NCBI GenBank assembly: GCA_965178125.1
Contig: OZ237749.1
Span: 744,001-808,000 of the forward strand
Source of the DNA: Bilabrum cf. latius
Taxonomy: Eukaryota
Length of the DNA: 64,000 bases
Direction: 5' to 3'
Part shown: positions 5,810-64,000 of the stretch, one piece after another
How the letters are laid out: every line of letters starts with the position of its first letter
Numbering within the stretch: position 1 is the first letter of the stretch
Notes under the pieces: generated by a model
What the model was told of the DNA's origin: nothing
Databases searched by the model: none
What the model saw: only the letters and a program-made list of their open reading frames with translations
Position numbers and translations under genes: made by a program

Positions 5810-5892
5810 AATTGTTGCTCACAAAAAGCTAAAATTCTCGGCAGCAGAGGAGTAGACCTCTGCCAGAATACCAGAATAATTTGTAGGATCTG

Positions 5893-39562: not shown

Positions 39563-42500
39563 TCACCCAGTGCCGCGGAAACTGCCCGACTTCTTTAGCA
39601 TCCTGCGCATCTCAGCGTTCGAAGAAGAAGCCTTTGGCATCCCCATGCCTCGGTTTGCCGTTGGTGTCCTTGCGAACCCAGCCCCTACACCAGCCCCTAC
39701 ACCTGACCCCCGGGGCCCACCCATGCCCCTCGGAGAACCCATCCCCCGAGGGCCTCCCATGCCCCTGTGCGCACCACCTCCTGGCAGTGCACCAGGCCTC
39801 CCACGAGACCCTCCTGCCACGAAGGAGCCGGCGCCGACCATCCGTCCTCCAGCGAATCCAGCCCCGGGCCGGGGAGAGCCCATGCCCTTTCCCTCGGCTC
39901 CCGCCCTCCCCTGATGTCGCTGCTGCAGGCGGCTGCCAACTGCGGACGGACGGCGGTCTCCCAACCGCCCCCCGGCTCCGGCAGCAGCATTGTACGGCTC
40001 CATACCTGCCTGTATCTGCGCATGCGTGCCTGAGGTGCCGAGCAGCTTGCCAGCGCCGGCGCCACCGCGCCTGCCCGGTGATCCTGGGAACCTCTTTCCG
40101 CCCCGATTGGCAGCGCCGAAGCCCTCTTCGCCGATGCCACCAGGGTGAGATGTCATCACAAGCTCATCGTGCGCTCCAAAATTATCACCAGAGCTTTGGC
40201 TGGATTGGGTAGGGCCCGCTATGTCGCGACCCGCGCCCTGCCTGCACCTCACGATCAGAAGTGCGGCAATAATGACCACGACGACGCAAGCTATCGCAAT
40301 GCAGATGCCCGCGGCGGCCCAAAACTCGCCGTCCGTCCAGCCATCTCCGTCCCCATCTGTGTCGCCGCCACCAGACGAAGTGACCACTGTTCTGACGCGC
40401 TCTGTCTTGGGAGCTGAGAGCAGAGCCACGCCCGTGGTGCTCGCTCCAGCTTGCTGAAACCTGTCGTCGGTGTTGATCTGGGTGGCCAGGCTACCGGAAG
40501 ATGCGCTGGACTCCACGGCATCTGCCACGTTGTCTGTCACGTCCGATCCCGCTGAGTCTCCAGAGAGCGAGGTTGAGAACTGCACGTTTGTGCCCTGCTG
40601 CAGCCTCCGCCTACTGCCCCCCGAGGAACCGGCGTCGATGGCACCGATGCTGATGTTGGAGGCCGACATGCCCGACCGCTGTTCCTCAGGAAGAGCGGCA
40701 CGCACAATGCCGGCCACGATCTCGCGGAAGGCCAGCTGCAGATCCTAGGATGCAGAGAACACGACGCTGTCCAGGCCAGTCAGCTCCGTGTCGAACTCAA
40801 CTTCCGCCGTCGTGCTGTCCTGCACGATGACAACGGTCGAGACGGGACAGCTTGGGGCCGGGCTCTACGCGGCAGCGGCAGCGCTGTTGGACGGCGACGG
40901 TGAAGCAGTACTTGCTGGGCTGGCAGTCGGGCTGGTGGCCGCTGGAGAGCCCACCACAGGTGAGCTGGACGCGCTAGACCCGGGGCTTTGCGTCACGGAA
41001 GGCGCCATCGACGGAGACGGCGTGCTGCTCACCCCAGCGCTGCAGCTGTCCGTGTAAGCGATCGTCACGATCAGGTCATCCGCAGCCACGGAGCACCCAT
41101 CCGTCACGTAGTATCGGAATACGTACGTGCCAACGTGGGTGGGCACAAACCAAGCGCTCTATCCCGCTGCATAGAATGTCATAGTTTCAGAACCGACCGA
41201 CACAGAAGGAGGCGAACCAGGCAGTGGCGCGGGGACCTGAGCTCCAGGGGGAACAGTCTCAACTGCCCAAGCCGAGGAGAGCTGCCTAAACTGCGAGGGT
41301 GCATCCGCCAGGTTTGAAACTCCAAGCGATGCGATGCCCGCCAGGCTAACGTTCGACGGCAGGGCATCGACGCCGGGTCGCAGCAGGATTGGCGCCACGG
41401 CAGTTGCCGCCGCAGACGGTCCCGTGGGACACACTACCTCGACTCTGAAGGTGCCGGTGGCCGGGGTGCTGCACCCATCGGATACTACAGCCTATACTTC
41501 GTAGCTACCGATTCCGTCCGGGACAAACTGAGCCAATCCACGCGTGGAACTGGACTGGACCCCACTGGCGGCGTCTACGCTAGTGGCGGACGCGATTTGC
41601 AGCTCGGCTGCTCTCGAGAACCCCATCGCGGAGGAGCCAGGACGGCGCACCCTTGGCAGCGTGGGCGAGTCATACAGGCTCCAGGAGTACGTCAGAGCAG
41701 AGGCTGGGGTGTCCGCGTCTGTGGTGCCTCGTGCGTCGAGTCCAACGGTCGAACCGAGCGTCCACACGCCCGAGGTCAGCCCCGTGCCCCTCTCTGCCTC
41801 ATCAAAGTCGTCGTCGCCAGGTCCATCGGAAAGCGGGGCAGAAATGGTACCGGAAGAGACCCTGCTGCTTTCATCGTCTGCTTCGATCTAGACCACGGGT
41901 GACTGGCCGCACGCAACCGTGATGCGGACGGTCTCAGTTCGAGTAGCGGCGGTGATGCCAGTGTTGCTGGAGCCTGCCATGCTGGGCGTCTCGGTGGTTG
42001 AGATTTGAAGCACGTACGTGCCTGCAGCATGCGGGAAGAAACGAGGTGACAGCACGTCAGCACCGTTGGGAAACAGATCCTGCATGGTCGCAGTGGCAGC
42101 ACCAGCCGGCTGAGAGACAACCGACCACTGCACGGAGAGCCCCAAGTCGTCGAGGGTCCTCGCCTGCGCCGGCGTACCCACGAGCTAGCCACGCAAATCG
42201 AGGTATCTCGTCTTCCAGAGGACAAAACCAGCGCCTGGAGTTAGCGACAGCGAGTAATCAGTCCCTGCAAACAGCATAGGCATGTCAGCTCCCACCACCA
42301 CCACTGCGTCTCCCTCGCTCACATAGCAGCCATCGGACGCAGACACCCTTGCCACGTACACGCCCGCCACATCCAACACCGCCGTTGCGGTGATTGACTC
42401 GGAGAAGACACCTTGTGTACCAATAGACGCCGTCTCAGAGCCCAGGGCTGGGGCATCTGCTGGGGGAAGGAAGCCATCCAGCCTGCTAAGCGGCGTGTTC

Positions 42501-45500
42501 TGGTCCACACCAGGCGCACCAATGTCCGTGACGAGTCTTGAGTTTGATGGCACCTGAGTCCAGCGCCATCTCCACAGCCTAGGTGCTCCCTGGGGGTGGT
42601 TAACCACGTCAGCTGAATTTGAGAGGCCAAACGAGACCTCCACGGCTTCGCCTGCTGCTGTAGACACCGTGCCAGCCTAAGGGGCAGGGCTTGGCGTAGG
42701 CAGCGTAGCAGAACCGTCGATCCCGCTCTACCCAGTCTGAGCTCCTGCAGCCACGAGCAGCGGCCCACTTGGCAGCCTAGTATGCACCTGCACGCCGGAA
42801 CCAGGCTCCAGGATGGAGAAGCTCTCCTGCGTGACGCCAGTCATGATTCCACGTACTGCCCCGGTTTCGAGCACGGGCCCATCGGCGCACACCGCCGTGA
42901 CCCGCACGGTGTCGGTGTCCACAGAGCAACCATCGTCGACTGAGATCTGTAGCTCATACGTTCCCAGCCCGTCTGGTGTCAGGGTCGGCATCGACGTTGA
43001 GCTGCTGCCAATGCTGCTGGTGCGGATGTTCGATGCTGACATTGACTAGATTGATGCTGCGTGGCCCACGCGGGACACTGCGGCTGGACTCGCAGCAGCA
43101 CCACCTGGTTTCCGCACAGATGGTATCGACAGAAGCATCCAAGAGTAGATCAATCCATCTGGCGACTCCTCATCGGTCGAGGCCGAGCCGTTGATGCTGG
43201 CTGACGTGCCCAGCACCACCTCGATATCGTCGCCTGCATCTGCCCTTGGTCTCGACGAGCATTCCACCACCAGCCTTGCGACACCAGAGCGGAACGCGCA
43301 GCCAACGAAGGCCTCCACTCTCAGCTCGTAGCTACCAGCGATTGAAGCAGTCACTGCAGGCCGCAACACACCACTATTCTCGATCGTAGCAGACCCGCCC
43401 GCTGGTGTGCTTATCACGGCCCACCTCAGCCCAGTCACGCCGATCGTCTGCTCTTCCGCTTCGCTGAGAGCAACCCCGGTGGAGCTGACTAGTCCGACTC
43501 TATCGAGCTCAAACCGCTGCGCAATGGGAACTAGGTACGAGCCGCCAGTGTCCAGCGATGGCGCCTCTTCCTGAATGCTCCACTCGAACTTGAGCTGGGG
43601 AAGCGCCGGTGCCGCATCTGCTGCGCTTCCCACCGAGTCTGATGACGAGGGTCCATTGTAGTAGGGGCTTGGAAGCCTGTTCTGGGAGTAGCTTTGGCTG
43701 CCAAGGTAGGCTGCATAGTCAAACGCACCCGCGAGATCAACCCATGCCCCGACCGGGACGGTGGCGGACTGCAGCTGCACTGGTGGCGTGGGCGCTGGGG
43801 AGGCTCCACCCGTTCGAGCAGTTGCGTCTGCAATCCTGGACCTTAGCCCGCCTGTAGCAGACACTGGGTTGGTTTCTGGGGCGGCACAAAGCACGTGAAT
43901 GTGTACAACGTCTCGGACGCTCGCACATCCATCGGTCGCGATCAGAACTAGGCTGTAGGTGCCGGTACGCCGTGCAACAAACGAGGGCATCAGCGTGGTT
44001 GCGTTCATGATGTGCGGTACGTCCATGGAGCCAACGCCGAGGCTGAATACCCCACCGGTGGAGTTGCCTGGACCACCCAAGCTTGCCGGAACTGCCTCAT
44101 CGCCGTTCTCCGCGTATGGTACCGATGTGAACTCCCATCGAACAGCCACTGAGCTCGACGCGTTATTTGAAGCGTCTGTCATGCTGCCATTGCCCATCAT
44201 GCTTGCGTTGCCTATATTTTCCTACACGGAGCCATGCAGCTGGATAATGATGCCGTTCTCCTCTGAAGCACCGATGACTGGCAGGCTTCCGTCATCGCTG
44301 ACGTTGCCGGCTGCGAGCACAGTCCCTGCAGTGCCGTTGGGACCATCCAGGGCTACAGCACCCGCGGTTGCCCAGAGCACCTCCAGGTTGTCCCCCGCAT
44401 CGATCTCGGGAAGCTGAGCGCATACAGCCTCCACCTGCATCTCGGCCGTGGAAGATGAGCATCCGTCCGACACGGTGACGCGGAACCTGTACGTACCCGG
44501 GATATCGGGAATGAAAGTGGCCACAGCATTGAAGGCATCTCCGATAGAAAGGCGCTGGGAACCGATCGGCGATTCAATCAGTTCCCACGTAAACGACATA
44601 TCGTCGTGTCCCCACGGGGTCACGCTCGCATCAAGAGTCGCAGTAGCATTGAGCACCGCAGCGGGGCCGATGAAGCCACCGTTGGTGTCGGCAAGGTCGC
44701 CCGTGTCAGCGGACCCGCGGGCAAGCACCGGACGCAATGCGTCGCTGGTCAGCGATCTCGGGGCGCGCAGTGCAATGGGAATGAGCATATCAGCTCCATC
44801 GCCAGAAGGGCGACCAAATTCACCGGCTACATTGGCGGTTGCCTGCTGCAGACTGGCAGCGGAAGTCACGCCGCCGGCACCCGACACCTCCGTCGATGAG
44901 AGGCCAGCTCCCACTCCAGCAAAGCTTGATCCCAGTACTTCATCATCGTCTGAGCCAGAGCTTCCCAGGATCTCACCACCGGCGCCATCAGATGATCCTG
45001 CTCCGAGCAAGGAGGCTCCAGTCAGCGGCACGGTAACCACAGATTCCGAAACTTGCGCAGTAGGCCCAGCGTTGCACGTTGCCACCACCCTTACGGTAGC
45101 AGTAGACACGCCGCAGCTCGCCCTGTCATCGGCAGCGTCAGGAGAGTCTGAAGCAGTTAGTGTGAATTCGTACATGCCCTCCATATCTGGTTCAGCCACC
45201 GCGGCTCCGGGGAATGCTCCAACACCCAGAGGCAGGGGCGCTGGGGCCACCCGGGAGCCCCCTACAGCAGCCAACCGGGAGCCAGTTGGGGCGGCGGTCA
45301 CTCTCCACCGATAATACAAGCCTGCTGCCGTGGCACCCGCCGCTGCGAGCTCAGGGTTGAGAATTACAGGGGCAAACCTGGGAGCAACAGGACCGGCAAT
45401 GACTCCGTCACTGGATTCAAGGGCAACAAGCGCGGATTCTCGCTCCATCGGGCTCAGCCTGGCCAAGTCAACGCTGTTGAGCAGCCCTGGATACCTTCCC

Positions 45501-48500
45501 CACCTGGATACGAAACTAGCCGAGCCGAACGAGTCCTCCGCCGCCATCGAGGCTGCATCTCCTTCAGCGACAGCAGGGGCGTTTGGCATTGTGGCCGGCT
45601 CCCCTGATTCTAACAGGCTCATTGCCCTAGCACTGGCGAATGCAACCGGCGGTGGTCCGCAATTTGCAACGACAAGCACATTGGCGAAACCGGACTCGCA
45701 CCGCATGCCGGCTTCAGCCGGAGGCAGCTCTGCAAGTGGAGTCGACAGGTCACGTCCAGGTGCTGATGACGCAAAGACACGGAAGCTGTAAGTCCCGGGC
45801 ACAGTAGGGATGAAGTACGCAGTGCTGGACGAGCTGTTACCTATCGCAACACCATGGCGAGCAAACTCAGCCACGTCAGACACGCTGGGTGCCGTCGCAT
45901 CTGGATCCGCAGCAAGCACGACATCAGCCAGGTACGCCGATCGTGCCGCCAAAATAGGGGCACTTACGACCTTCCATTGGTAGAACATGCGGGTGCTGGA
46001 TAGCGCGCTCGATGCGAGCGCCCCGGTCACCTGAGCAGAGGCCCTCATGGTCACGCTGCTGGCGAGCATGGCGCCACGGAGGCGATTGACAGCTTCGCGC
46101 ATCGCGGTTGCGCGGGTCTACCCCAAGCCAATGGCTCTTTGAGCAGTCTCGTGCGCTGCACGAGCAGCCTGTGCTCCTGTCCTGGCCTAGTCCATCGTCA
46201 CAGTGATGGATGACTGCTGTACCGTCACAGCCGGGGCCGGCGGACACTTGACTTCCACCTCGACGTCTAGAGAGGCCTCGGAGCAGCCGTCGTGGACGGT
46301 CAGACGGATCTTGTACATGCCGTACGCATCCGGCCGGAACATCGTCACGGCGTCGGGGTTTATGCGCCCCGCGGCGCGATGTGCCTCTGGTCCGCCGCCC
46401 AGCGATCGCAGCAGAGAGATCGCAGCTTCTGTCCCACCTGCGCCGGCCATGTCGTACGAAACAGATGCCGAGGCTACCTGAGCCGCGAACAAGCTGTTCG
46501 ATGTTGCATTCGGGTGCATGAGAGCGGGGCGCATGCTCTGTGAGCCGGTGGGGTATTCTACGACCTGCCATATGTATCGCAGTGGCTGAATGAAAGAGAA
46601 ATCGTCTCGTGCAAGGCCGAGGGCATCTTGCGTGGCATTGGCCGGGTCAGCCTGGTCGAATGACATGGATGCGTTGATGGTGATCTCAGGCATGATCACT
46701 GCACCGGTGCGCTAGGACGAAGCAACAGTAATGCTGTACGTTGCTGTTCCATCCGCTGCCCCATCGTCCTCGAGCCGCAATACGGCAGATTCCTGCGAGT
46801 CCGATGTCTCGCTTGCTCCAGGCGCATCCAGAGAATCATCGGCCTCGGAAAGCACGACATCAAGCACCGGCACGGGCGTGGGATTGCACTGAACTTCCAC
46901 CGTCATCTCGCGCTCGATCGCGCGGCAGCCATCCCAGACGCTCTGCACGATAGTATACACTCCCACGCCTGGCAACTCCAGCTGGGCGCTATTGTTCGTG
47001 GAGATCACTCCAGTGGACGGCGCCTCGTCAAAGAGGCACTGGCCGCCAAAGCTCGAGTGCCGATTGGTTATATCAACTAAAAATTCCTTAGCCCCCGTAG
47101 CAGATCCCGGGCTTTCCTCATATCCGACTGTTTCCTCCGGGCACTCCTAACTCAGCAGAGACCACGACAGCAGCGCCGGCACGGCAGTTAAGCTGCCGTT
47201 TGCGCTTGCGTTGAATTCGATCGTGACAGACCTATTCATGGCCCCACCCTCACTGAAGTCGTCGCCAACGTACTTGATGAAGGTGTGCGTCTCGGGAAGA
47301 GGTGGGAGGTCTGTGGTAGTCATGGGACAGACTACTCGAGCCGTCACATTTCCGCTCACATTGGTGCATCCATCGGACGCCAGAAAGCCCACGGTCCAGA
47401 CCCCAAGCTTTGTGGGGGCAACAGAGGCAGACGCAGCACGAACGGAAGCCTGATGTTCAGTACCATTGCCAACTAGGCGAGTCTCCCCATTGTCCATATC
47501 AGGCCCGTCTAGGAGCATGAGGGCACTGCCAGGCTCATCACCAGCGATCTGGGCAATCGTGCCAGCGCCCGGACCCGAGTAGACTCCCTCGGACTCATGG
47601 AACGCTGAGGTCCACTCCACGTACAAGGCATCGGTGTCAAAGTCTAAGGCTTCGATGGAGAAGTTCAGCGGAGGGATAGTCGACGTCGCGACATCCACCA
47701 CTGACACGAGATCGCTACGTGACAGCAGTCGCGTCAAGTTCAGCACGGGAGCATCGTTACATGCCGAGGCCACGATTGCAACGTCCACCCCCAATCCGCT
47801 GCCATCCGAGGCATTCACGCGTATCATAGACATACCGTGGTGCTCGGTTGTGAACATCGGGCGCTGAATCTTGCTTGCAGGCACTTCAGGCGATAGCGAA
47901 GTACCCGTCTTGACCTCTTCAGCATCGGCTGGTACTAGGGTATCAACGTATTCGAGCAAAAAGGAAGTCCCGGGTAGCACTCCAACAGAAATGGAGGCGT
48001 TGGAAGGCACGCCGGCCGACATGCTCAGCTCTGCAGGTGCCAGTGCAACCTGATGAGAGCCAAGTGCGCCCTCCAGTAGGTGCTCAGACGTGACCACACG
48101 GCTTGAACTAGCCACGGAGAATGAGCCGGACGACAAAAAGGACCCGCTGGCAGCTCGTAGTGCCAAGAAGCGATCTGACTGGTTGGAGCCAGGCGGAGAC
48201 AGGGGACCTGCGGCATAGCCCATGAATGCCCATTCCAGGTCGATATCCTCTTGATTGCTATCAGAGTCTGTTGGAGAGTCTGATCCCAACTGAATCGCAT
48301 CAAACGCCTGCATCCCAGGCACAGGTAGGCCAGTGTCGGCAGTGTCAGTCTGCCATTGAGAGAGCAGCACGTCAATGTTGTCATCATCATCAACATTTTC
48401 GGAGTCATCGACCTCGCCGGCGTACTGGTCCCCGTTGTCCTCTGCAACAAGGGCAGTTTCGTTGGCAGCCTGCGGATCTGGGGCGATGCTTGCCTCGGCA

Positions 48501-51500
48501 AGTAGCGTTACATTCGTTCGTACGACGGTGCAGCCATCAGTGACCGTCACGATGAACATGCTCTCGCCCAGCACCGAGGGCACAAACTCCAGAAAGAAGC
48601 CGTCGTGCGCCGAGCTGGCAGGCAGGCGCAGGCCCGGGTCAGTGAAAGACACGTTGGGGGCGGGCACAAGAGCGGGTACGGGGTTTGCCGGCAACATGAC
48701 GCGCGCTGCGACATCCGTGCTCTCCAGCGGACCCACGAAATCCAAGTACTCAAGGGTGAGGTTCATGCCACCCAGGTCGCCCTGAAAGCCAACGGTACCC
48801 GTCGCGTTGAGAAACACCGGATTAAATGCCCGAGAAGATGCATTCCAGCGGGTCACCAGCTCGCGAGAGGTCAACACAACAGCAGGGGCCGCGGGACACT
48901 GGGACACCACCTCAACCTAGGTCGAGTCATCCGAGCAGCGATCGCTGGCCTTCGCAGTGGCACCCCACCGCCCCAAGAACCTGGGCGTCAGCGACGCAAC
49001 GCCAGATGTACCGCCGCTTGCGAATGCGGCTGAGTCGCCCAGCGTGATGTTGTCAGGTGCTAGCACCTCGGGCCGGAACGAGTACGCGTTGATATCGTGC
49101 TCTGGCGATCCTTGGGCCGGGAATGGCGACAACGGGACAGTGTCAGCCGTGAAAAACTGGACAGAGTCAAGCTCCCAGGTGAGGTCCAGGCTATCCTGAT
49201 CCGCGTCGGTGCTCGTAGTCGCGTTAAGTGCCACGGAAGAGAATCCCAGGCCCTCCCATCGGCTCGTGTACGTGGACTCAGTAGACCCTGCATCTGGTTC
49301 CGCATTACAAGTCACCACAAACACCGCATCATCGCTGCCGTACCTGCAACCATCGTCAGTCACGTACACTACGCGATACATGCCACCGGCCCGGGGTGTG
49401 ACCCGGATCGTGTCGATCAGAGCTACCGAATCATTATTCATAGTCTCGCTCACATTGGTCCAAAGCGGGGACTATCCGCTACCGGAAACCGTGATTGTCT
49501 CAATCTCAAAACGACCGCGGCCGAGCAGAGCAGACGCGTTGTAAAGCTATCCTGAGTGCCCACCGCCATTGACAGTCACAACCGCATCTACGAGTAGCTC
49601 CTCGAACACGGTTCCTGTCCAACTCACAGACACCGGATCACCAGTCAACGGGCTCCCGGTCATGTTGCTGCGCAATACAAGGCTGACCTCAGGTTTGGCA
49701 GGACAGGTACTGCGTATCACAACCGCTTCACGAGCAACGGAGCATCCGTCCGAAGCAGTCAGCTCAACGACTCGGCTACCAGCCGTGTACGGGGTGAAGG
49801 TAGCTACGGTACCATCACCTGCCATGGCAGGCACGCCGCCTTCAGCTTCAGATGCGTTGCCCAGCACTGGATCAAGCACAAACGACCCATTGGTGTCGTT
49901 CCGCAACTGTTCAGGCAAATCATCACCCGTAGTACCGTTGGACAAAAGGGGCTGCACGAACGAGCCGTCAAGCCCCTCGGCCAGATCGCTTCCAGGACTG
50001 GCGAAAGCACGGCCCTAGGCAGATCGCCATCGAAGGAGCGTGGTACCGGTCTGGTTGTCTGCCACCTCTACTTCGATGTCTCGAGAGCCAAACCCTTGCG
50101 CTGGTCCCATCCAAGCCAAATCAATGACATGTGTTACCCCTTCACCGAAGCCGAGGCTGGACTCAGTGCTCGTATGGAGGAATCGGATCGCAGGTGGGGC
50201 GTCGCAGGTGACCTGCACAGCAATGCTGTCGAAGCTGCCTGAGCAGCCGTCGTCGGCGGATACGCTGAAAACGTACGTGCCAACATGGGCGGGTCTGACC
50301 AGCTGCCTGGACGCATTGCCACCTGCGATGGCAACAGCCAAAGGTGCCAGCTCGTCTTCTACCAGCATGAGGATGTCGGTTGGGATCTCAGAAGTTGTTC
50401 CAGTCACTGGCATACCCTGGCCTTGGTCAATATCATCCTCGCCATCCGCGAAGGCAATCGTTGAAAGCAGCCCCTGCAGAACCTCGCCATCAGTGGGCGT
50501 TCTCATTGTGCCGTTGATTCCAACCAGCAGAGACTCATGCACGTACAAGGCACCATTGGGAGGCACAACAAGGACATCGAGCACGCTAGCATCGTCAGCA
50601 ACTGCCTTCGTGCTGTCTGGAAGCACTGCAGGGTCAAGTCCGATGGATCCATCCGGCACGAAGGACTCATCCGGTGCGGCGTACGACACAAGCTACCAGT
50701 GGAACCGCAGCACGTCGTGCTCTACGTCATAGCTCTCAGTCGCATCCAGGACGATTGCGGGTAGCGTGCCATTGGAGTCGGGGAAATCCAGCGGCGTGTA
50801 GTTGGCTGGCAAAGTTCCATTATTGAACGCCGTTGCATTGTCCATGTGCTACTGGGCCTCCTGCTCCGCCGCGGCGACAGCCTCAAAATCTGCGCCATAC
50901 TTCACAGCCAAAGCCTCGTCTTCCGTGCCTGCTTCCCACCCTGCCAACTGAATAGCAACAAGTTCGTCACTTGCATCGATGCTTCCGTTTGTGCCACTTT
51001 CAGCCGGCCCCGCTCTCGCTCTAGCCATCGGGGTACTCGAGCACGCCGAGATGACAGCAGCGTGCACTGTGTCAAACGAGCAGCCATCGCTCACCTTGCC
51101 CTCCAGCAACCAAGCCCCAAGGCGCGCACCGGCAACCAGTGCTTCTGAAGCAGCGATTCCAGCATCCAAATCGTACCCTACGCCGCTGAGGGGGCTGTCA
51201 GACGAGCCGTGAAGCAGGTCAGAGGGGGACCACCCAGGCAAGTCAAGGTCAGCGAACCCGGCATCGGCAGCCACTTGCGGGGGGAGCACCTCGGGTACAA
51301 AGTAGGAGCTTTGATCCCTGCGATGGAGACCTGAGGCAGGGTCTGCATGGTCAGCGGTGAAACCATGGGCGTAAACGTTGCCCGATGCATCCATGGTTCC
51401 GTTTGAAAACGAGTAGACGTACGCATCGGTAGCCACCGAATCTCCGAGCCAGTCGACAACCGACGAAGGCATGATCGAGTCAGCAGAGACCATCGGCATG

Positions 51501-54500
51501 GCAGACGCGTTGTTGATGGCTGCTACTGACAGCAACGGGGCGTAATCCACCAGGGTCCAGTTGAACCTCAACCGCTCGCCCTCTGGATCCGCGCTGTTGG
51601 ATGAATCCAGCAAAGCGTACGCAAAGTCTCCGAGGCCCGTCGTATCCGTGTTAGACGAAAACTTCAGGTCATTGGCGGAATCAAGGTCCACCTTGTAGAC
51701 TCGAGGGGATCCAAGCAAAGCCGTCAACTCCACATCAATAGCGAGCACGGTTCCGTTCGTCGTTTCAATGTAAACGTCGTCAGCAGAAAGGGCCCCCGCG
51801 GTCGACGCCTCGATGGACCTCGAGGCGTTGAAACCCGTCCAGATGGAGGAAACAATCGCCGTCTCATTCGACTGATCGGGTGCTTGGCCTCTGGCAAGTG
51901 CAGCAGTAGAGTCCTGCGCTGCCTCGGCTGCTGGTGTCTCGGAACACACGACTTCGATGCGGATATCGGCAGCGACGGAAGAGCAGCCGTCAGACGCGTC
52001 CACGGAGAAGTCCCACGTTCCCACACTCTTTGGCGCGAGAATCGCATCTCCATCTGCGGTGGACACCAGCTGCGTGTCATCGTCCTGCAGAACAGCCTCT
52101 TCCGTGTTGTTGGCAGGAGAGACAGGCAGCTGGAATGCATCTGACTCAACGGTGTACTCGATCGTAAGGAAGTCTCCGTCTGCATCCGCGGCGGCGGACG
52201 AAAGCTCTACGGGCTCAAAGTGAGACCCATTCCAGACGCTCTGAGTGGCTGCGCCCCCAGCACCCGTCCGCAGAAGGGGCGGGGTGTTGCAAGACGCAAA
52301 CACCGCTGCCTCATCCCTCGTGATGCTGCAGCCATCAGAGACAGCCAGGTTAAACGAAGTGCTGCCGAGAACGGTAGAGGTCGCAGTGGGCGTCGATGTG
52401 CCGTCCCCTGTTATGGAAGCCGACACGTTCCCGATCACGTCCTGCTCGAATACGAACGTGATGTTCTGCTTCGTGCCCAGCGCGAAGCCCTGGTCGACCA
52501 GAGCCTGTGGAATGTCAAACTCTGCCGTGTACTCGGTGTCTGCCGAAGGAGGCGCAAAGAATTGGTCGTCGCCGTACTCCCACTCAAAGTTGTAGGGAAA
52601 CCCAAAGCGATCAACCGGAATGTTCGCTGAGAAGGAAGTCGACTGGAAAGCACCGGTGGTCTTCGTCGGCCTGGACCACTAGCTCACGATGTCTTCCCCG
52701 GCGAAGACGTTCGGTGGCTCCGGGCACTGGGTGGTGACTTGCACCTGGGCCTCCGCCACCTGGCACCCGTCAGTCACCTTGAGGGTCGCGTTGTACGTGC
52801 CGAGCTTCCTCGGGCGGAATGACGGCGAAAGGGTCTGGAACGGGCCGATGCCGTATCCGAGCTCTCGAAGCGTGTGCGGCTGCTCCCTGACGCACAGCAA
52901 GCGCCGCTCGACAGAGCAGTCAGAGGTGCTGAGAGAAAATCGCCCTGTACCAGTCTAGAAAGGGCTGCCGATACGCGTGTCAAGGCTGGGTGAGCTGCTG
53001 TTCCAATAATCGCAGAGCTGCTGGGCGCCTGCTCCGGCGAGAACGTTGCCTGCCAGGTCACAGCCACCAAAGATGCTGATGCCTGTTCCAGCTCGCAGCC
53101 GCCTCCCGTACTCGTCGTACGCGATCACGCCATTCATCACAGCGCTCTGCCACCGCTCCACACACTCAGCCCCGCAAGCAACCTTGTGGTCGGCACCCGC
53201 GGCGGCCCACTCGCGGTAAGCACCCCTGACCTGGCCGGTAGAGTACACCGGGAGCGTGGAGATCGACCCCCTGGACCACCCGCTGCCATGCGATCCTGGA
53301 TCGCAAAGAACAGCCACGAACTCATCGTGGAACGGAAGCTTGGCAGCGCGAGCCCGAGCCTGACACTTGGCGTCGGCTCCCTCGATGCCGCCCAGCTGGC
53401 CCGAGTAGAGCTCCGAGGTGACGAACGTCTCGTGGATGCCACCATCAGTCTCTGACCCAGTCAGCGCAGGGATGGGGTCGTCCGCTCCGATCACCAAAGG
53501 AGCATTGCTGAAGGAGTCGCCGGAGGGCTAGTGCACCAAGGACCACTCAAAGCGGAAGGTGGGAGCGTCACGCGACGCCTCATCCGCACTGCGATCAGCT
53601 GATGCGTGGGACATGGTGCCATCCAAGGTCACGACAGGGAAATTACCAGTTTCGCCCAGTTCCACCGTGACATTCATGCCCGCATGTGCGAGCGGGGGGT
53701 CATTGCACTGCAAGACCGCCACGGCATCATCGCTGGAAGCCACGCAGCTAGACGATACCACGTAGCTCGACACGTACTGGCCTTGCAGTGCCATGCCAAG
53801 AGCCGAAGCGTCGAATGGCGCGCTAAAGTTGTAGTTCTCTGCAGCGATCTCAAGCTGCGTCGATGCCGTGCTGGGGTCGGCGATTCCTGCACCGCTATCT
53901 CCGCCGGCCAGGGCGGCAGCAATGGCGGTGCCTGCAGGGGCTGAAGTCGTGCGCCAGTTTGCGTCGATTCCGTCCATGTTCACAACAAAGAGAGTCTCTC
54001 CGGTAAGGTTAAACCTAGAGATGCAGTCTCGGGTAACATTTCCAGCGTCGCTTTGCGAGCACAGCACAGTCTCGAGCTCGCCGTCTGCATCCTCCATGCC
54101 GTCTCCAACGGTGCCTGCCGTTGCAAATCTGGACCCGATTCGCTCGTTCCAAGTGACGATAGCAGGGGATACGGTTGCGTTTGCGCCTGGCGACGAAGGA
54201 CACTGGGCCTCGACCTTGACCTCTGTGTTGGAGGCGCTGCAGCCATCGCTCACTGTGAGACGGTAGGTGTACACCGTTGCGACGGGAAGGCCATTCGATA
54301 CGCCCGCATCCGCATTGATCTCAGCAGCAGGCACAGTGAGAAGGACAGCTCCTGGCGTCCCGTTGATCGGCATCGTGTACACTGGTGCATCTGGCAGGGC
54401 ACCGCCATAGGAAACGGACGAGCCGAGAGAGGGCTGCTCCTCGCGCACCAGCTCCCACTCGTAGCTAACGATATCACTCAGCCCGTCGGGATCATACGAG

Positions 54501-57395
54501 TAGCTGCCATCGAGCACCACCGGTGCAAACGTGTTGGCGGGCGAGATGGAAGCGGCTCCGGGGGAGGCTCCCACGAAGCGGTAAGATTCATTGAAAACGA
54601 CCATCTGATGTGCCTGCGCGGCGGCAGCGCGCGGGGGCGAGTTACAGCGGACTAGCACTGCAATCTCCGTGCTGCTAGATGAACAGAAATCGCTGACTGT
54701 TAGCCGCACCCGAAACACGCCGCTGGCGGTCGGGCGTAGCATCGCTTGGCTCGTGTTGGTTCCAGTCTAGACAAACGCGTCGGTCAAGTCGGCAACCGTG
54801 GGCTCTGAGGGAAGCCCCATCCCGTTCAACGCACCAACAGGCACCTCGACAACCTCCCAAGCGAACAGAAGGTACTCGTCATCTGCATCAAAGGAGCCGC
54901 TACCGTTCAGGGGGACCATAGGAAACGAGTTCCCGAGACCGCGCTCGACGACGCGATCACCGCCAGCCAGCGCAACTGGCGGGGCGTTGCAGCGCACGCG
55001 GACTGTCACTCTGTCCGCGCGAGTCGTACAGTTGTCCCAGGTCTGTAGAGTGGCGACATAGTCCCCCACGGCATCGGGCAGCAGCAGCCCAGCTGCCAGA
55101 GAGGAGGCCTGGAGGATGCCTGCCTGCGACTGCCTGCACGCGTCACTGAGGGCGTCTCCTGGGCAAGGGTGCAGACCCATATCCGCGTCGGACCGCAGAC
55201 CCGGACCGACCATTGTACCGGCGTCAATGGCTGCCGACAGGTTGCCGTATCCCTAGGGCCTGGCCTCCAGACGCCACCGGTGTCCTGCAGCAGGCACTCC
55301 TTCCGAGGCGTTGGTGGGACCCAGGTCCGACAGAGAGCCATTCAGCACGACAACTGCTGGGGCTGACCACGATGACGACGCATTGAAAGACATTCCGGCA
55401 GCAGATGTGGCCTAGGGAGGCAGCGGCTCGGACATGCCCACCCCGGTGATGCTTCTCGCAGTCGAGGCAGCCCTCGTTCGCTCGGCAAGGTCCTTCAGTT
55501 CACCAGGGACAAAGTGCGCCAGCGCGTTGCCAACAAACAAAAGCACGTCACCGCCAGCACCGAGAGCTTCTCGAGCTGCATCAGTGGATGCCTGGGTCCC
55601 ACCAGTGACGCGACCACCCTCCGCACTGCCGACGGGGGAGTCGTCCGCGCGAGGTACAGCCACACCTCCACGTGTGGGAATGGCGCGAGCGACTGGAAGG
55701 AGCTGTCGGGAGCACGATGCAGTGACTTGCACTGTGTCATATGCGATCCCACAGCCATCCGTCATCACCAGACGGATCGTGTACTCACCTTCCGCATCCG
55801 GCTGGAACATTGTCTCTGGGGAGTATGCCATCGCGACGCCTGCCGACCCCCCCTGAGCCGCGAGAGAGAGTTGCAGTCTGGCACGCCTTGCAGGAGAGGT
55901 TCCATCGATCGTCTCTGCCTACCAGCGCCCCGTCCGCACGGCGGAGGCCTCGGGTGCACCGATGATTTCCCACAGAAAGTCGGTCAGGTTGGCGGCGAAC
56001 TAGGAGGACGCAGCGGACAGAGCCACCTGCGGGAACGGGCCATTGCCGTGGTCGTACCCAGTGCCCATGGAATCTGCGCTGCCCACCATCACATCGGAGC
56101 CCGCATCGGCCACGAGCTCCCCGCCCTGGCCACTGCCCCCACACACGGCAGTCACAGTTACGGTGTCCGTGGAGGCAGGGCAGTCGCCCCTCTTTGCCTC
56201 CAGCTAAAGGACGTACTCGCCGGGAGTGTCCGGCCGGAAATGCATCGTGCCCAGCGGGGCGGCGTCAGGAACGACCAGCCCCGCGCCGCTGCTGGGGTCC
56301 ACAGTCGGGGCGGCCACGTCCCTCCTGTGAGCGGCGGACTGGGGGCCCACGGCGATGCTGGACTCGGTCGGGGAGGAGAGCACGGTCCACGTGTACCTGA
56401 CGGGGGCCCCGCCCCGGAGGAGGGCAGAGGACTGGGCCGCCTCGATCGCGCGGGCGGCGTTTTGGCTGGATCCGGAGCCCAAAAGCTCGTCCTCGGCCGG
56501 GATGGTGCCCGAGGGATCGAGCTCGACTAGCTCGAACTGGCCGGTGGAAGCATTGAACACGGACTGCCTGTCTGCTCCTGCCGCGGCTGTGGGCGCGTCT
56601 CCGCACCTGACCTCCACACGGACCGTGTCTTCGAATGTTTGGCACCCGTCAGACGCCCGTAGCGTCACAGCGAAAGTTCCTTCCCGCGAAGGAAGAAACG
56701 ATGCGGCCAGTGCTCGTTCGCTGTCCGATGCTGATGCGGGCACGAATGGGTTTCCAGGCCCGTGCATCAAATTTGGAGCGACACAAACACCAGCACCCGC
56801 CAAAGATGAAGGAGATTGAGTCAGGTCGACGGCTGCGAGCAAGTTGAAAATAGACTCGAATGGGTCGGGTGAGAGGTTGTTCTAGAAGAAGGAGCAGGAT
56901 CGCACTTCACACGGTCGAGGTCACTGGGTATCCCAGAAATGCACCCCGATCGGCGAATATGATGTTATTCAAACATCAGCAAAACAGCTAGCATCGTAGT
57001 CTTGAACGTTGGTACGAGGGCTCACATTGCACGAAGAACCGTCGCGATGCCACTGTGGACGTCGACCCGTTGCGGTACGCCTGCGCGGCTACTGTCACCA
57101 TCCCAGTTGCGTCAATGGTAAATGGTCCGTTGTATGACATATTCGTCGCAGGAAGCTCGCTACCCCTGCTGATCCCAACAGATATACTTGCATCGCCACC
57201 GGTTGGACCATCAACATAGATTTTTGTCGAAGGGGACAGGAAATACCCGCTCGGGGAAATCCTCGGAGGAGCGACCTACGACTTGGCCCCGATAATCATT
57301 GAAACGCCCACGATAACAGCGAGAAGTCGGTGGAAGCCGGCGCATTGCTTCCCAGAGCTTTGACACGGTGGATCCCTCGCCTGGAATAGGCGCAT
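39563..57395 (-). CDS. Giant type I membrane protein, about 5,880 aa: signal peptide, Fn3-associated-like domain, about 25-30 PKD/KIAA0319-like Ig-fold repeats, DUF1554/endostatin-like domain, TM helix, Gly/Arg-rich tail
   Basis: 22 track ORFs from 39563 to 56842 share one minus frame; the breaks I checked are TAG and the final stop is TGA. Repeat motif F.P...G.Y...L.VSDGC...D.V.V...C; GGIEGADAKCQARA; TM FWAAAGICIAIACVVVVIIAALLIV. The best-fitting intron 56833-57025 links to an exon with a signal peptide. Not every gap was read. Confidence 0.82.
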
Positions 57396-57526
57396 TCCGA
57401 CCGGACAATTTGAGCGAGACAGCTTGCTCGGTATGCAAAGAAAGAATTTTAGGTGTTGCTCGGTTTGCGCGTTCGAACAACGTGAAGTTCTTTGCTCGAA
57501 GGCAACGGACGCATGGCAGTTTCACT

Positions 57527-58150
57527 ATGTTCCGCAAAACTGCGCGGCGCCGAGTAGGTCGCTCGGATTGGTCGCACTAGATTTGAGGCAAGAGACTAAG
57601 AAGTCTATTGGCTTGACGTGCGTGTGTGTTGTTGTACGTGCCCCTAGTGGCGGAACACGAGCTGCAGTTGGTCATGGTGTCGCACGGTGCTGTGCTGAAC
57701 ACTCCAGGGACGCCTTTAGAAAAGGGCTACCACCCAGAGACCTGTTGGGCGGGTCGAATAGCTGCGTTAACATTATTAGGATCTTTAATCCGCGTGTTTG
57801 CATGGCTTGCGGCGGCTTTGACTCACCTAGCCCCGCTGCAGTGGGCAGATAGCTTTGCTGCGGTGTTTCAAGTCGCCACGATTGGTGTGGGGGCAGCCCT
57901 ACAATTGAAGATGCCACCAGCCGCGCTGTCATTATTGGCTGCAATTTTAGGAAGCTTGGCTCCCGTGGTACTAGGCCAGCTTGTTGGCGCAGCCACCTCT
58001 CCACTTGGCATCGGAGCAGTTGCACTTGCAGCTGCTCTTCTTGCGGACTACCTCGCGCTGCTTACGCTAGATTCAGTCAGCAGGAGAAAGGCTTCGCGAT
58101 TATTTTGTTGTCAGAGGCGAAGACAGAGGCTGAATGCTACGAAAAGCTGA
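57527..58150 (+). CDS. Small multi-pass membrane protein of unknown function; start uncertain (ATG 57527 with a possible intron 57554-57667, or ATG 57674)
   Basis: Track ORF 57626-58150 has about four hydrophobic segments and a basic tail, ends in TGA, and fills an otherwise unusually large gap. Confidence 0.5.
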
Positions 58151-58285
58151 TCTGATTTATTGAGGGCTACTCGGCGAGAGCCGTCTTGTTAACGCTAGTC
58201 TTGTTGTCATGTATACACGATACTCTTGGGGGGTGCTGTCCACAATTCTCGCACGAAACAGCGACAAACGCACTGAATTCACGCC

Positions 58286-59634
58286 TCACAGCCTGACTTT
58301 GTCTGCCACCTCGTCATCCTCAGGGTCGGAACCCTCCCCCACCCCGACGGAGAGCAGCCGCTTCTGGAGGGCACCGACCGCCTTGGGCGTCACCACCAGG
58401 ACCCGCGCCTTGAGGATGTCCAGCGGGTTGGCCTGCTCGGCGAAGCACCACTTGAGCCGCTGCAGGTTGCCCGAGGCCAGCTCAAAGTAAGGTGTCATTT
58501 CATCGGGAGCCACGACGAGCATGGCGGGCACCTCGCTCAGCGGGAGGGCCTCCACGGCCATGCTGCGCACTTCCTCCAGCTGGCCCGACGCGACCATCCC
58601 GGCGGCGTCAAACTCAGCGCCGCCTGCAGCCGCATCGCCCCCTTCCTCTGCCTCTTCCGCCTCTGCCTCTGCCTCCTCTTCCTGCTCCTGCTCCTGCTCC
58701 TCCGCCTCGATTTCGTGCATCAGGGCAGAGCGAGCCACCGAGGCCAGCGGGGCACTCCGCCCCCCCTCGGGAAGCAAACTGCCTTCCCCGGTGCTGCGAT
58801 CAGCGGCTGGCACCCTAGTCTCTACGCCAGCGAGCTTCTCGAGGAGGTCCCTGGTCTTGTGCGAGGAGAGATCGTCCACCCCCGAGAGGACTATGAGCCG
58901 GCCGTCGCGTCTGCGGCTGCTCAGCACCACACGCATGGCAAGCCCTCGAATCTTCTTTGGCAGCTAGGTGTCCCACTCTCTCAACCTGGGCGGGTGTGCT
59001 TTGCCGCCCCCCACCCAGATGGGAGATCGGATGGAGCCATGCCTGGAGCGCCCGGTGCCCTTCTACCTCCACGGCTTCCGTCCCCCGCCTCGGACTTCGC
59101 CGCGCTTCTTTCCCTTATAAAGAGTCTTTCTCCGCTTGTTTCGCTGCCATTCTACTACTCTGTGTACGATATCCTGCCTGCATGGTACGTCCCAAACGTC
59201 TTCGTGTAGACCAACAAAGCCAATTCGCTCCCCAGACTATAAATTCATGATGGGCTCGTTAAGCTCGGTTGAGAGCAGTGGCTAGGCACTTCGTTTAGCA
59301 TCCTTATGACTTGCTGCGTTCCATGACAGAGGAGGGTGCGCATCGGAACAAGTAGTGCACTTGCAACATGGCTGCGTGGCCCCGGGGGCTGCGCGCGGGT
59401 GATCTCACCTACTTCGCTCGAAAACTCTGGTGCAAGTACTCCCAACTCAGTCATACTCAAGTTAGGAAGTACATCCACACTATTTTTCGTTGCTTGCGTC
59501 TAGATAGAGCGCAAACACCCAAGGGCACTTGATGCCCGACATGATGTAGTCTCTGCGATGATTCCACCAATTACAGGACGTGTCAACGGCGACAGTACTC
59601 GATAGATGGTTGATGGTCGAAATGAGCGACTCAT
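58286..59634 (-). CDS. MRPL4: Mitochondrial ribosomal protein uL4m, about 417 aa; exons 59634-59409, 59313-58286
   Basis: [63 protein letters not shown] and NPLDIL. Arg/Ser-rich N-terminus resembles a mitochondrial presequence. Intron 59314-59408 (GTGAGA...CGCAG) is inferred. Ends in TGA. Confidence 0.93.
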
Positions 59635-60024
59635 ATTTAGACGAGAACGCCCAGGTTAGACAGAGTGATGGCTACCAGGTTGCTTACGGGTTCGCAGGCT
59701 GTGAGGCATTTCGATCGTCGACCGGAGCTGAGCGTTCGCATCGACGCCATCCAAGTCTTATAGAAACCTACACCAAAAACAGAGATACTACAGCGTAAGA
59801 AGCGTAGTCTATTCGTGCTTACAGGGTGGCTCTGTGGCGAAGGACCAGCGGTTTTGTTCGAGTGAAGCAACATTGTGGATCAGCAAGGGAGCTTGCAACG
59901 GACGGGACCATAGAGCACGGCTGGAAGATAATAAGCAATCCAGTCCGACGGGAATATTTAAGTATATATCTGGGCCTCGAGGAGTTCGTGCGTTGCTGCA
60001 CTGATTCCTTTGCAAGTGCGGATC

Positions 60025-63000
60025 ATGCCAGTGCTCGCTTCCAATCTGAGCATGGCACCGGTTGCCGCAGCTCTCCTGCTAGTTGCAGTTGCAACGTGCT
60101 CTGCATGTCCAAATCAATGCAATGGTCATGGTAGATGCACTGGGCAGACCTGCTCTTGCTTTGAAGGATGGCAGGGTAGTGCTGATTGCTCGCGGCGTGA
60201 GGCAACATTCAATGCGAAGCACGCCATCCATCGCAACATGGCCCAGCGTACCAAGACCATTTTATTCAATTTCACCATGAATCGTACTCTAATTCACGCA
60301 GGTTCTTGTGACAAAGGTGTTGCTTGGTCAGGGCGAGCTACCGCGAACAACGTCGTCCACACCCGCCAGGCCTCCATTGCCGAGTGCTCCAACCATGGGA
60401 CATGCACCGATTCATCCGGGCTGTGTTCTTGCAGCAAGGGTTTCCAAGGAGATGACTGCTCCAAGTAGTCGTGTCCGCGGGGTTGCTCGGCTAGGGGCAC
60501 CTGCCGAACAATGCGAGACCTGGGCCTGTCGTTCGGGAGACGAAACGAGGTGTCGTCTGGAGGATCCATTGCTGCAGGGGATGGCTTTGGGTACTACTAT
60601 ACTGGATGGGAAGCTGATCGAATGAGACAATGCGATTGTGATCGCGGTTATTTCGGGCCAGATTGCTCAGAGAGTGAGAGATTGGGCTCACTATCGCAGC
60701 GTATCGGTCGCTTCACAGCTTCGCTTCGCTGCACACTTCTCTTGCCTGTCCACGTCAAGATACTCCAACATACCGCAGAGGAGTGCCCAAGAGCAGACGA
60801 TCCGCGCACAGTCGGACACAAAGCATTTTCGTTCAGAATCGTCTCTGGCCATCTGCTGCGCGCCATGTAGCCGTCCAGCATGCCTTCCAAGCCGCGGCTG
60901 ACCGTCTCGCTTCTTGGGGTTAACACCGAATTCGACTGGGATGCGACGGCATCACAAGTAGAGGATGCGTTTTCTAGTAGTGGTGCTGCTTAGCAGGTGC
61001 TAGTCCACCGGGAGGCTACCACATCTGTAGCATCGGACCCCGGTGTTGTCGATGGATACACGTTCACGGTATCTGTGCTGTAGTGGGCGGCTGCTGGGAT
61101 GACCAATAACTTCTATCACGACGGGGCTCCAGATTTTACTCCCCAAAATATAGCCTGTGATGTCGGTGGGACCGATCCTCGCGTAGAATTCGCGTCCACT
61201 GGGGATGCTGAGTCTGGCACGCACACGCTACAGGTGGCTGCTGATGGCTCGCTGAGTTACACGGACCCTGATGGCACCGTGACTACAGGAATCGCAATCG
61301 CTGCATCTGTTGAGCTTCCGAATGCGGCATCCCCTTAGATCCAGGCCTCATTCCTGCATACAACAGCGTCCAGTTATGTGACAGGGGAGTCTTGGACCAT
61401 TTTCGCCCCTGCTGGCGAGGCGCACACTAGCTTCAGGTCTGCAGCTGTGTGCAGCATCGAGCAAGTATCCGCGGGCCTCACCCTTTCCGGGGTGTACTCA
61501 GGGTCAGAGCCACTGACATACTACGTTGAAGTGTCCGATGCATCCACGAATCCGAACCAGTTCAGGTGGTGGACAAGTGCAACCGACAGCGCGAAGTCGG
61601 CTGCAGTCAGCATGTCAACCTCTGCCGTTCTGCTATCTCTAGGAATTAGCATTGAGTTTGCAGATACCCTTGGGCACATACAAGGCTAGTAGTGGCAGCT
61701 GCAGGCTTCTGGTCCTACAATCAACATAACTAGTGGGCGAAATAGAGGGTTGGACGCGGCAGGGCTTGCCACTGCGTCGGCCTCCGAGTACGTAGTTCGG
61801 ATTGTGGACGGCACTGCGAGCCCAAACACCTTCGAGTATCAAGTAGATGGTGGTACATGGTCTAGCGCAACAGCAGTATCTCTCGGCGGCCAAACAGTGA
61901 ATTCGCAGCTGTCTATATACTGGACTCACTCGACTGGCTATGTGGCTGGATTTGAATGGACCATCAAACTGGCCGCAGGTGGGCATACGCAGGTGATACC
62001 AAGGCCGACTGCACCGCTGGTTGCGGAGTGGGCTGGAGTGTCGCCTGCAAACAACGAATACGTTGTGTCTATATCGGGCGAGGGCACGCCGAACACATTC
62101 ACCTACTCCGTGAACGGAGCACCAGTGGGTACGGACCACGACATCGTTAGCTACAGCAATGGCAACACAGAGATTGGCACTCTTCGCTTGCGCTTCTACA
62201 GCACTACTGGATTCAAGATAGGGTAGCGATGGAAGATTTCTCTGTCAAACAAAGGCGAGGTGTCTCTGCAATCGGACGGAGCCACCACTCCGTACTCCAC
62301 ATCGAAAGAGCTGGTGGTCCAGTACGAAGGCACGGTCATGTCTTCGGCAAGCAGTAGCATTTATCACGTTGTTGTGGATTCTGTTGATGGGAGTTCTACC
62401 TCTGGCGCAACCTTTTCGTACAGCAGGAACGGAGCAAGTTTTTCGGCAGGGGTTGGCTCTGGCGAGGCGGGTCAGGATATCGTCGCTGCAGGCAGCTCAG
62501 CTTCCAATACCGAGTTGGGTAACGGACTAAAATTACTCTTTGCGGGAACACAGACCTATGCAGTTGGTCAAGCGTGGCAAATCGACGTAGGAAAACCATC
62601 GGTGATTGTGTCAGCTAGCCCGACCTTTCAGGAGTTCAAGATGTGCGCTGGCAGAGGTCTGTGCGCTCCCGCCACTGGGCAATGTACCTGTTTTTCTGGC
62701 TATGCTGGTTCAGACTGTTCGACCATATCGAGCGCAACCGAGACAACGAACCGTAATCCAGGCCATCTAGTGAGCGTGACTGAATCCACCTACACGGGGA
62801 CAGTACTGGAGCTGAGCACGCAGAAGCCAGCTGCACCCGATTTCTACTTCATCCGCGCCTTGGCCAACGGCAAGCAGAAATTTGGAGTCAAGGGCAATGG
62901 AGAAGTAGAATTTGAAGTTTTCACTGCCAACAAAGCCTAGCTTACTGGAGGTGCTACGGTTTCAGGTGGTGGCATCCAGGTAACTGACTTCGGCATCACT

Positions 63001-64000
63001 ATTGACGACGGGGGATTGCAGATTGACGACGGCGGTGCCAGCCTGTTCTCGAAAGCGGACAGAGTGAACACCCACATCATGTCAACAGTGCTCTCAGCAA
63101 CAGGCACTGATGGTTTCACCAATACGCTACTGAAGCTGGAGGTGGAACAGGGCTATCAAGCCTCGCCTACAACCACCAACTTCCACTTCATGCGACTGTA
63201 CGAGACCACAGTGTCGTCCGCGACACCGGCAGTGCGCACACCCACAGAGGTGTTCAATATTCGCGGTGACGGTCGTATCACCAGTCTCGCAGGAGGGGTC
63301 GAGGTCACAACCGGGGGAATCACCGTTTCGGACGGCGGGCTGAGTACCTCCACCAGTGATTCGACTGGAGTGCCACTTGAGGTTTCTCACACATCAAGTG
63401 CGTTCACCGGCTCTGCTTTTGTTGTCGATGTGCCAAATACGGCTCCCTCTTCTTCGTACAATATGATGCTGCTGCAGAGTGGCACAACCGAGCTTCTTCA
63501 GGTGCTGGGCAACGGCTAGCTACACGTGATGCAGGGAGGCATCGACGTGGATGCAGATGGCATCAACATCGATGCCGGAGGTTTGACAATCGCTGATGGT
63601 GGCGGTACCATCCACGATGGCGGTCTTGTTGTCAAGCTAGGCGGAACCACTATAGAATCGGGTGGCCTATTCGTGGACACGAATGGTGGATCAACGCTAT
63701 CAAATGATGACATCTCCGACCCAGCTGTAGTTGCTAGTGCTACTCACGCGTCATACACTGGAACCGTCCTCGACATTAGACACAATGTGGCTCAAGCAAA
63801 CGCAGACATGATTGTGGCTACAGCAGACCATGATGGTGTAGCGGATGAGGTATTCAAAGTGTACGGCAACGGTGACACATACATTGGAGTAACAGCAACA
63901 ACCCAACTTCGGCTTCAGCATGATGGCGAGATCAACATGGTCAACTCGGACTTTATTATACAAGCGGCAACGCCAGGGAAATCTGTGGAAATCGCATCTG
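60025..64000 (+). CDS. Secreted EGF-repeat protein of the tubular mastigoneme (Sig1/OCM1-like) type with a long beta-rich repeat extension; runs off the right edge
   Basis: Signal peptide MAPVAAALLLVAVATCSA; CPNQCNGHGRC, ECSNHGTC, CSARGTCRTMRDL, WEADRMRQCDCDRGYFGPDCS, ECPRADDP and CAGRGLC. One frame to the window end with only TAG breaks. Start is ATG 60025 or 60052. Confidence 0.8.
60197..60301 (+). other. Spliceosomal intron, 105 nt, phase 1, in frame and stop-free
   Basis: C|GTGAGG...CACGCAG|GT. Removal gives DCSRRSCDKG, the expected EGF linker. Confidence 0.8.
60674..60778 (+). other. Spliceosomal intron, 105 nt, phase 1, in frame and stop-free
   Basis: A|GTGAGA...ACCGCAG|AG. Removal gives DCSEKECPRADDP. 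Confidence 0.8.

Follow-up and report, generated by a model that had tools for sequence, protein, structure and literature searches.

We propose that the window, i.e. the whole 64,000-nucleotide stretch of DNA that was analysed, is nuclear DNA of an organism in which cytosolic translation treats UAG as sense, most probably as glutamine, with UGA as terminator and UAA not used as sense. In this reading, to which we give a probability of roughly 0.85, the TAG at positions 59065-59063 is codon 159 of a gene for the mitochondrial ribosomal protein uL4m. The source would be a gene-dense, intron-poor eukaryote with a GC content of about 58%, in which this codon would supply the invariant Gln of the uL4m loop.

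Stop codon usage across the window

In-frame TAG codons are found in 11 of the 12 genes of the window, 164 times in a total of 19,769 codons. There are up to 51 of them per open reading frame (ORF) and they are spread evenly over gene deciles. TAA does not occur in frame in any of the 19,769 codons. In-frame TGA occurs ten times and each occurrence terminates one of the 10 complete genes, so that in this small sample the gene ends are TGA in 10/10 cases, TAG in 0/10 and TAA in 0/10. Off frame, the same ORFs carry 385 TAG, 149 TAA and 878 TGA triplets. The 164 internal TAG, the lack of in-frame TAA and the strictly terminal position of TGA together imply that TAG is sense, that TGA is the terminator and that TAA is not sense. 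UAG is thus a sense codon in nearly every gene, with termination at UGA. TAA may have no assignment at all, or may serve as a stop that is seldom used.

The longest ORF of the window (GC about 58%) has 631 aa if the standard code is applied. When TAG is read through, ORFs of 5785, 4415, 1405, 1332, 1239, 993 and 691 aa appear together with others, and they tile both strands. If TAA is read through as well, no more than two of the large ORFs become longer, gaining 17 and 10 codons on the upstream side. That the ORFs are genuine genes is supported by the eukaryotic domains that Pfam recognises in them, namely Ribosomal_L4, cyclophilin (in a PPIL2-like protein), Iml2/TTC39, Pkinase, Acyltransferase, GFO_IDH_MocA, PKD and EGF. 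The proteins with these domains include a tafazzin-like acyltransferase, a teneurin-like EGF protein and a giant protein with 30 PKD repeats.

A leaky stop with low-efficiency readthrough is one alternative way to explain an internal TAG. It accommodates neither the presence of such codons in 11 of the 12 genes nor the complete lack of genes ending in TAG (0/10), and with up to 51 TAG in one ORF readthrough of this kind would yield essentially no full-length product. This density indicates instead that decoding is near fully efficient, that is, reassignment. By analogy with other codes in which a stop was converted to Gln, reassigned UAG would be read by a Gln-accepting tRNA carrying the anticodon CUA or by an adapted near-cognate, and eRF1 would no longer compete at UAG while still recognising UGA. 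ARAGORN found no tRNA gene in the 64-kb window and no Rfam family was detected in it.

Several of the genes deserve separate mention. The GFO/IDH/MocA gene (4484-5818, minus strand) is the only one of the 12 that is free of TAG, and contains one CAA and six CAG. Some genes may avoid TAG, among them perhaps highly expressed ones. The 5785-aa ORF (39563-56920, minus strand) has 30 PKD-like repeats with a D-G-C motif close to the end of each, and at its C-terminus a transmembrane-like stretch together with a tail rich in Gly and Arg; it includes 30 in-frame TAG. The 4415-aa ORF (6104-19351, plus strand) holds 51 in-frame TAG and gives a single Pfam match, LRR_6. By eye, its C-terminal third carries a P-loop-like GKS and a His...Cys pair, which would be compatible with a possibly caspase-like region.

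Identity of the uL4 protein and conservation of the TAG site

The stop-to-stop frame 58286-59404, with TAG read through, was used as Pfam query. It matches Ribosomal_L4 (PF00573) over profile positions 3-190 of 190 with E=1e-49 and 169 bits, for a cut-off of 25.8. The four best PDB matches are all mitoribosomal uL4m chains, headed by 6nu2_F (9.7e-32) and 3j7y_F (1.7e-31). The bacterial L4 5myj_BF follows closely (4.5e-31) and the chloroplast L4 6eri_AE is weaker (9.4e-19). The entry 6z1p_Ae, which we take to be uL4m of the Tetrahymena mitoribosome, is found at 1.7e-25, below the human uL4m entries. Judged by these matches, the protein is a uL4 of the bacterial/mitochondrial type. It has in common with human uL4m (3j7y_F) and bacterial uL4 the Ribosomal_L4 fold signature and the GGGRKPW-x-QKGTGR loop, and differs from both by a long Ala/Glu-rich insert between the domain halves and by the presence of five TAG codons. 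Its gene is nuclear and solitary rather than part of an S10-type operon.

The KPW(R/P)QKGTGR motif of this loop is present in the window with TAG in place of Q. The original prediction located this TAG at 59063-59065 on the minus strand of the interval 59030-59100, where it reads back exactly. Together with uL22 the uL4 loop forms the constriction of the exit tunnel (PMC4937340, PMC7038982), and UAG 159 would therefore provide, if read as proposed, the invariant Gln at that constriction. In Pseudomonas aeruginosa, deletions of 57-KPW-59 and of 68-RA-69 in this loop are reported to confer macrolide resistance (PMC11484784).

The conservation of the position was assessed by aligning the query, with X at each TAG, to the best 120 homologues listed from a large protein search (MAFFT). 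The TAG column contains Q in 119/120 homologues and a gap in 1/120. The homologue with the gap is P0001, a fragment of 215 aa whose first residue lies downstream of the site, which leaves Q in 119/119 aligned residues. Q also lies opposite the TAG in 3/3 printed PDB alignments, all of them with mitoribosomal uL4m chains. A scan of metagenomes with uL4m returned 17 loci, of which 15 were examined, the partial L016 and L017 being left out. The loop motif is present in 14/15, and among these 14 the site codon is CAG in 8 and CAA in 6. There is no close relative among the 17 loci, the best showing 51% identity. The claim that the TAG falls on a near-invariant Gln of the uL4 loop is thus borne out by the alignment, where the homologue column under the TAG is Q, in a protein with a full-length Ribosomal_L4 profile match. 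Termination at this point would leave 158 of 417 residues and so, as had been anticipated, remove most of the protein.

Structure and expression of the uL4m gene

Contigs of four public runs (X5, X8, X9 and X11) were compared with positions 44001-64000 of the window; for X5 and X8, the classification as RNA runs is a program's guess. One X5 contig (depth 191) and one X8 contig (depth 33.9) join 59313 directly to 59409. The 95 nt that they skip (59314-59408) have CT..AC ends on the plus strand, equivalent to GT..AG on the gene strand, as for an intron. The uL4m gene, on the minus strand, is accordingly composed of a first exon whose coding part extends over 59409-59634 with the ATG at 59634, the 95-nt intron, and a second exon (58286-59313) that carries the Ribosomal_L4 domain and ends with a TGA at 58288-58286. 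The exons join in frame and encode 417 aa with five TAG codons: codon 45 in exon 1 (59502-59500) and codons 86 (59284-59282), 101 (59239-59237), 159 and 192 (58966-58964) in exon 2. The upstream exon, the intron and the fifth TAG were absent from the first description of the gene.

At the 5' side, the spliced X8 contig ends at 59654 and an X5 contig at 59647, and the letters past the X5 end are presumably Illumina adapter. These two ends and the adapter-like letters suggest a very short leader (59635-59654). The N-terminus contributed by exon 1 is basic and Ser/Thr-rich: its first 45 residues include 6 R+K but a single D+E. Such a composition fits a mitochondrial presequence, and the product would be imported into mitochondria.

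The X8 contig that carries the joint (record 18, 1335 nt) corresponds to 59654-59409, 59313-58716 and 58635-58225 and has no deviating letters. It is thus identical to the genome across 58716-59313 and retains the TAG. Contigs X9 record 23 and X11 record 5, from a relative that is about 91% identical, still contain the 95-nt intron and are unjoined. The persistence of TAG in contigs that lack the intron argues against a silent pseudogene as well as against editing to CAG; it argues that the uL4m gene is spliced and expressed with its TAG unedited. An intact second uL4m copy with this locus silent, or a transcript carrying CAG, had been named as the observations that would overturn the prediction, and what was found is a locus whose intron is removed in both the X8 and the X5 contigs and an X8 contig in which the TAG is kept. 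A second copy would make little difference, given that in-frame TAG is present in 11 of the 12 genes.

These data bear on two further explanations. One is that TAG is a stop at the DNA level and is converted to CAG in the mRNA by editing of the U-to-C type. Nothing speaks directly for such editing, but contigs drop rare variants and a minority edited form would be compatible with them. Editing is contradicted by the identity of the intron-less X8 contig to the genome, TAG included, and by the number of sites that would have to be edited (164); moreover, the genomic CAG that relatives carry at one TAG site (see below) fits synonymous drift rather than editing. We regard editing as very unlikely. 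The other explanation is the one that usually comes to mind when an essential gene has one in-frame stop: a pseudogene, or an error of sequencing or assembly. The independent runs X5 and X8 show identical letters with 0 differences, the gene is spliced, and in the nearby giant gene 28 of the 40 listed differences to relatives are synonymous. Pseudogene, error and the leaky stop considered above, taken as one group, are the least probable of all the explanations that were weighed. An expressed gene in which UAG is sense remains the reading that we prefer.

Three sequence features of this region were observed in addition. Between about 58636 and 58715 (minus strand) the uL4 domain is split by an acidic, low-complexity Ala/Glu/Gln insert. 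It contains a 15-nt tandem repeat in 2.6 copies, was masked as a repeat in the contig comparison, and has another length and sequence in the relative represented by P0001. Just downstream of the uL4m stop, 110 nt (58170-58279) are replaced by 104 other letters in X9 and X11; this is a diverged 3' UTR or intergenic segment, whose flanking coding sequence is about 91% identical. Finally, X5 record 9 (depth 110, compared with 31) shows about 15% differences to parts of the giant PKD-repeat gene and skips other parts. Its matches lie within 54132-55125 and 45282-56446, beside X5 contigs that are identical to the window. This record could stem from another, diverged copy of the gene, from another haplotype, or from another strain present in the run.

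Evidence for glutamine

Glutamine is, from the comparison of homologous sequences, the best-supported residue for UAG, and this support depends on two hyperconserved columns and on two comparisons with relatives. The first column is that of uL4m codon 159. The second belongs to the tafazzin-like acyltransferase, where a TAG (38899-38901, minus strand) lies in the context RGAGLM-TAG-GWM. Among the best 150 representatives its column contains Q in 142, H in 6, E in 1 and a gap in 1, i.e. Q in 142/149 residues. The original prediction regarded the uL4m site as the best single indicator of the amino acid. It is indeed a strong indicator, but it is not the sole strong one, the tafazzin-like TAG being equally good.

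Three alignments (uL4m, PPIL2-like and tafazzin-like) were scored over columns that were at least 70% occupied. Gln makes up at least 90% in only 4 of the 926 well-occupied query columns, and the window has TAG at two of these and CAA at the remaining two. The hypergeometric probability of finding at least 2 such Gln columns among the 11 TAG columns is 7.6e-4. Two TAG columns reach a conservation of at least 90%, and in both the conserved residue is Gln. Summed over the 11 TAG columns, the log-odds are +1.6 for Gln, -8.4 for Val, -9.3 for Thr, -10.6 for Ala, -12.2 for Glu and -12.8 for Leu, so that Gln leads the next residue by about 10 nats. In control runs the procedure recovered the true residue for 53/55 canonical codons with at least 6 sites, and in subsamples of 11 sites non-Gln codons were called Gln in 3/9000 cases; true Gln codons were recovered in only 65% of the 11-site subsamples.

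A search with the 4415-aa ORF returned a single protein from 8000 candidates, P0241, a protein fragment of a relative, which is 84% identical over 296 aa and has Q opposite the window TAG at 18689-18691 (plus strand). In the 5785-aa PKD-repeat gene, the TAG at 55919-55921 (minus strand) is CAG in the second X5 contig, in X9 and in X11, owing to an A>G difference at 55921. This is the only one of the 40 listed differences to relatives (of 1843) that hits a TAG; of the other 39, 28 are synonymous and 11 non-synonymous in the called frame. The TAG-to-sense differences seen in close relatives therefore lead to Gln in 2/2 cases (18689-18691 and 55919-55921).

Hydrophobic positions and the possibility of another residue

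The assignment to glutamine does not account neatly for all sites. Mostly hydrophobic columns are found under 4/11 TAG, compared with 0/23 CAG/CAA, 24/340 for the pooled codons of E, K, R, S, T and Q, and 65/83 for Leu codons. The hydrophobic excess of TAG gives a Fisher P of 0.007 and a binomial P of 0.005, values that are post hoc and derived from small samples. Two of the four columns belong to the PPIL2-like protein, a protein that occupies a very long branch (2.09) in the tree. At its TAG 23248-23250 (plus strand) V is present in 90/120 homologues, and at its TAG 24517-24519 (plus strand) L is found in 57, M in 26 and F in 9 (92/120); both are unexpected for Gln. The other two hydrophobic TAG columns are variable. 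For the kinase region, none of the alignments obtained from PDB extends over the TAG sites of the kinase.

An internal profile of the 30 PKD repeats of the giant gene provided a further sample, with 8 TAG in match columns. Of these, 1/8 falls in a mostly hydrophobic column, as do 2% of 50 Gln codons and 43% of 142 Leu codons. By eye, the single hydrophobic-column TAG appears to be one residue out of register, beside a conserved Trp. The repeats cannot name the residue because they are too divergent, true Gln being called Thr there; they show only a polar-like distribution of TAG.

These observations leave some room for UAG to be sense with another meaning, e.g. Leu as in Rhizaria sp. exLh, or to be ambiguous between Gln and a hydrophobic residue. 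Such a reading would explain the contrast between 4/11 TAG and 0/23 CAG/CAA in hydrophobic columns, and nuclear codes with UAG as Leu and UAG as Ser have been reported (PMC5304391, PMC11687900). However, Leu scores -12.8 over the 11 TAG columns where Gln scores +1.6, and would have to be placed at columns that are Q in 119/119 and 142/149 residues. Both comparisons with relatives give Gln, and the PKD repeats place TAG in hydrophobic columns far less often than Leu (1/8, compared with 43% of 142). In addition, only 20-44% of the conserved columns under true Gln codons were reported to be Gln-dominated in Iotanema (PMC5304391), so that mixed columns are expected under Gln codons. Another or an ambiguous residue is in our opinion improbable, although less so than editing. 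The prediction that UAG means Gln is thus supported, but by few sites, and with 4/11 alignable TAG columns that are mostly hydrophobic.

Comparison with known variant codes

A code in which UAG is Gln and UAA is not sense matches a known, rare type of variant. Changes of UAG without UAA have been reported in an uncultured rhizarian, Iotanema, Scotinosphaera, Protocruzia and a few phyllopharyngean ciliates (PMC11687900, PMC5304391). The fornicate Iotanema spirale is described as using UAG for Gln, with UAA and UGA as stops (PMC5304391). UAA is the terminator in 104/119 complete transcripts reported for it (PMC5304391), whereas 10/10 gene ends are TGA in the window. Both have in common that UAG alone is sense, that it is found on hyperconserved Gln positions and never as terminator, and that UAA never occurs in frame. 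Iotanema, an anaerobe, is not known to have a mitochondrial translation system, whereas the genome studied here, with about 58% GC, encodes uL4m and a tafazzin-like enzyme.

Among ciliates, reassignment of UAG alone to Gln has been reported for Protocruzia tuzeti and for two phyllopharyngean lineages (PMC11687900). The codon and the inferred amino acid are the same as here and UAA is likewise not reassigned, but nothing in the data from the window points to a ciliate.

The code in which both UAA and UAG are Gln (UAR, NCBI table 6) is reported from hexamitid diplomonads, some ulvophytes, oxymonads and Amoeboaphelidium protococcarum (PMC5304391, PMC11687900, PMC6299283). It also involves a stop-to-Gln reassignment that includes UAG. 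It was rejected for the window, where in-frame TAA amounts to 0 in 19,769 codons compared with 164 TAG, despite a CAA:CAG ratio of 211:421.

Rhizaria sp. exLh, finally, is reported to use UAG for Leu with UAA and UGA as stops (PMC5304391). In this non-ciliate eukaryote, as in the window, UAG has a meaning separate from that of UAA, and some of the TAG described here lie in hydrophobic columns. In contrast to exLh, the two hyperconserved columns and both comparisons with relatives indicate Gln and not Leu. A literature search that covered few subscription journals returned no description of a GC-rich non-ciliate in which UAG alone is Gln.

Lineage and significance

The PPIL2-like protein was also used to look for the affiliation of the organism. 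There is no ciliate among the named matches of its best 120 homologues listed. A quick tree was built with 36 matches picked by hand from these 120 (27 named and 9 unnamed), in which the query, on its branch of 2.09, joins no supported group. An aphelid origin was considered, as Amoeboaphelidium is reported to use both TAG and TAA for Gln (PMC6299283), but is not supported: TAA is never in frame here, and in the quick PPIL2 tree the query is not part of the fungal clade.

Tentatively, and at odds that we consider clearly unfavourable, the window may derive from a lineage newly recognised as having a variant code, i.e. a GC-rich, intron-poor, mitochondrion-bearing protist outside the ciliates and fornicates, with UAG as Gln, essentially UGA alone as stop and UAA driven out. 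In that case the surplus of TAG at hydrophobic positions might stem from a reassignment that is young or still partly ambiguous.

Variant nuclear codes are rare, and those in which UAG has changed without UAA are rarer still. The practical consequence is that an annotation of this genome with the standard code truncates almost every gene. Truncated fragments are already present among public proteins, namely P0001, whose 215 aa start after the last uL4m TAG of the relative, and P0241. The uL4m and tafazzin-like TAG sites are ready targets for confirmation at the peptide level. A GC-rich organism that terminates at UGA and reads UAG as Gln would provide a contrast to the AT-rich, UAA-terminating Iotanema, and so bear on how eRF1 separates UAG from UAA.
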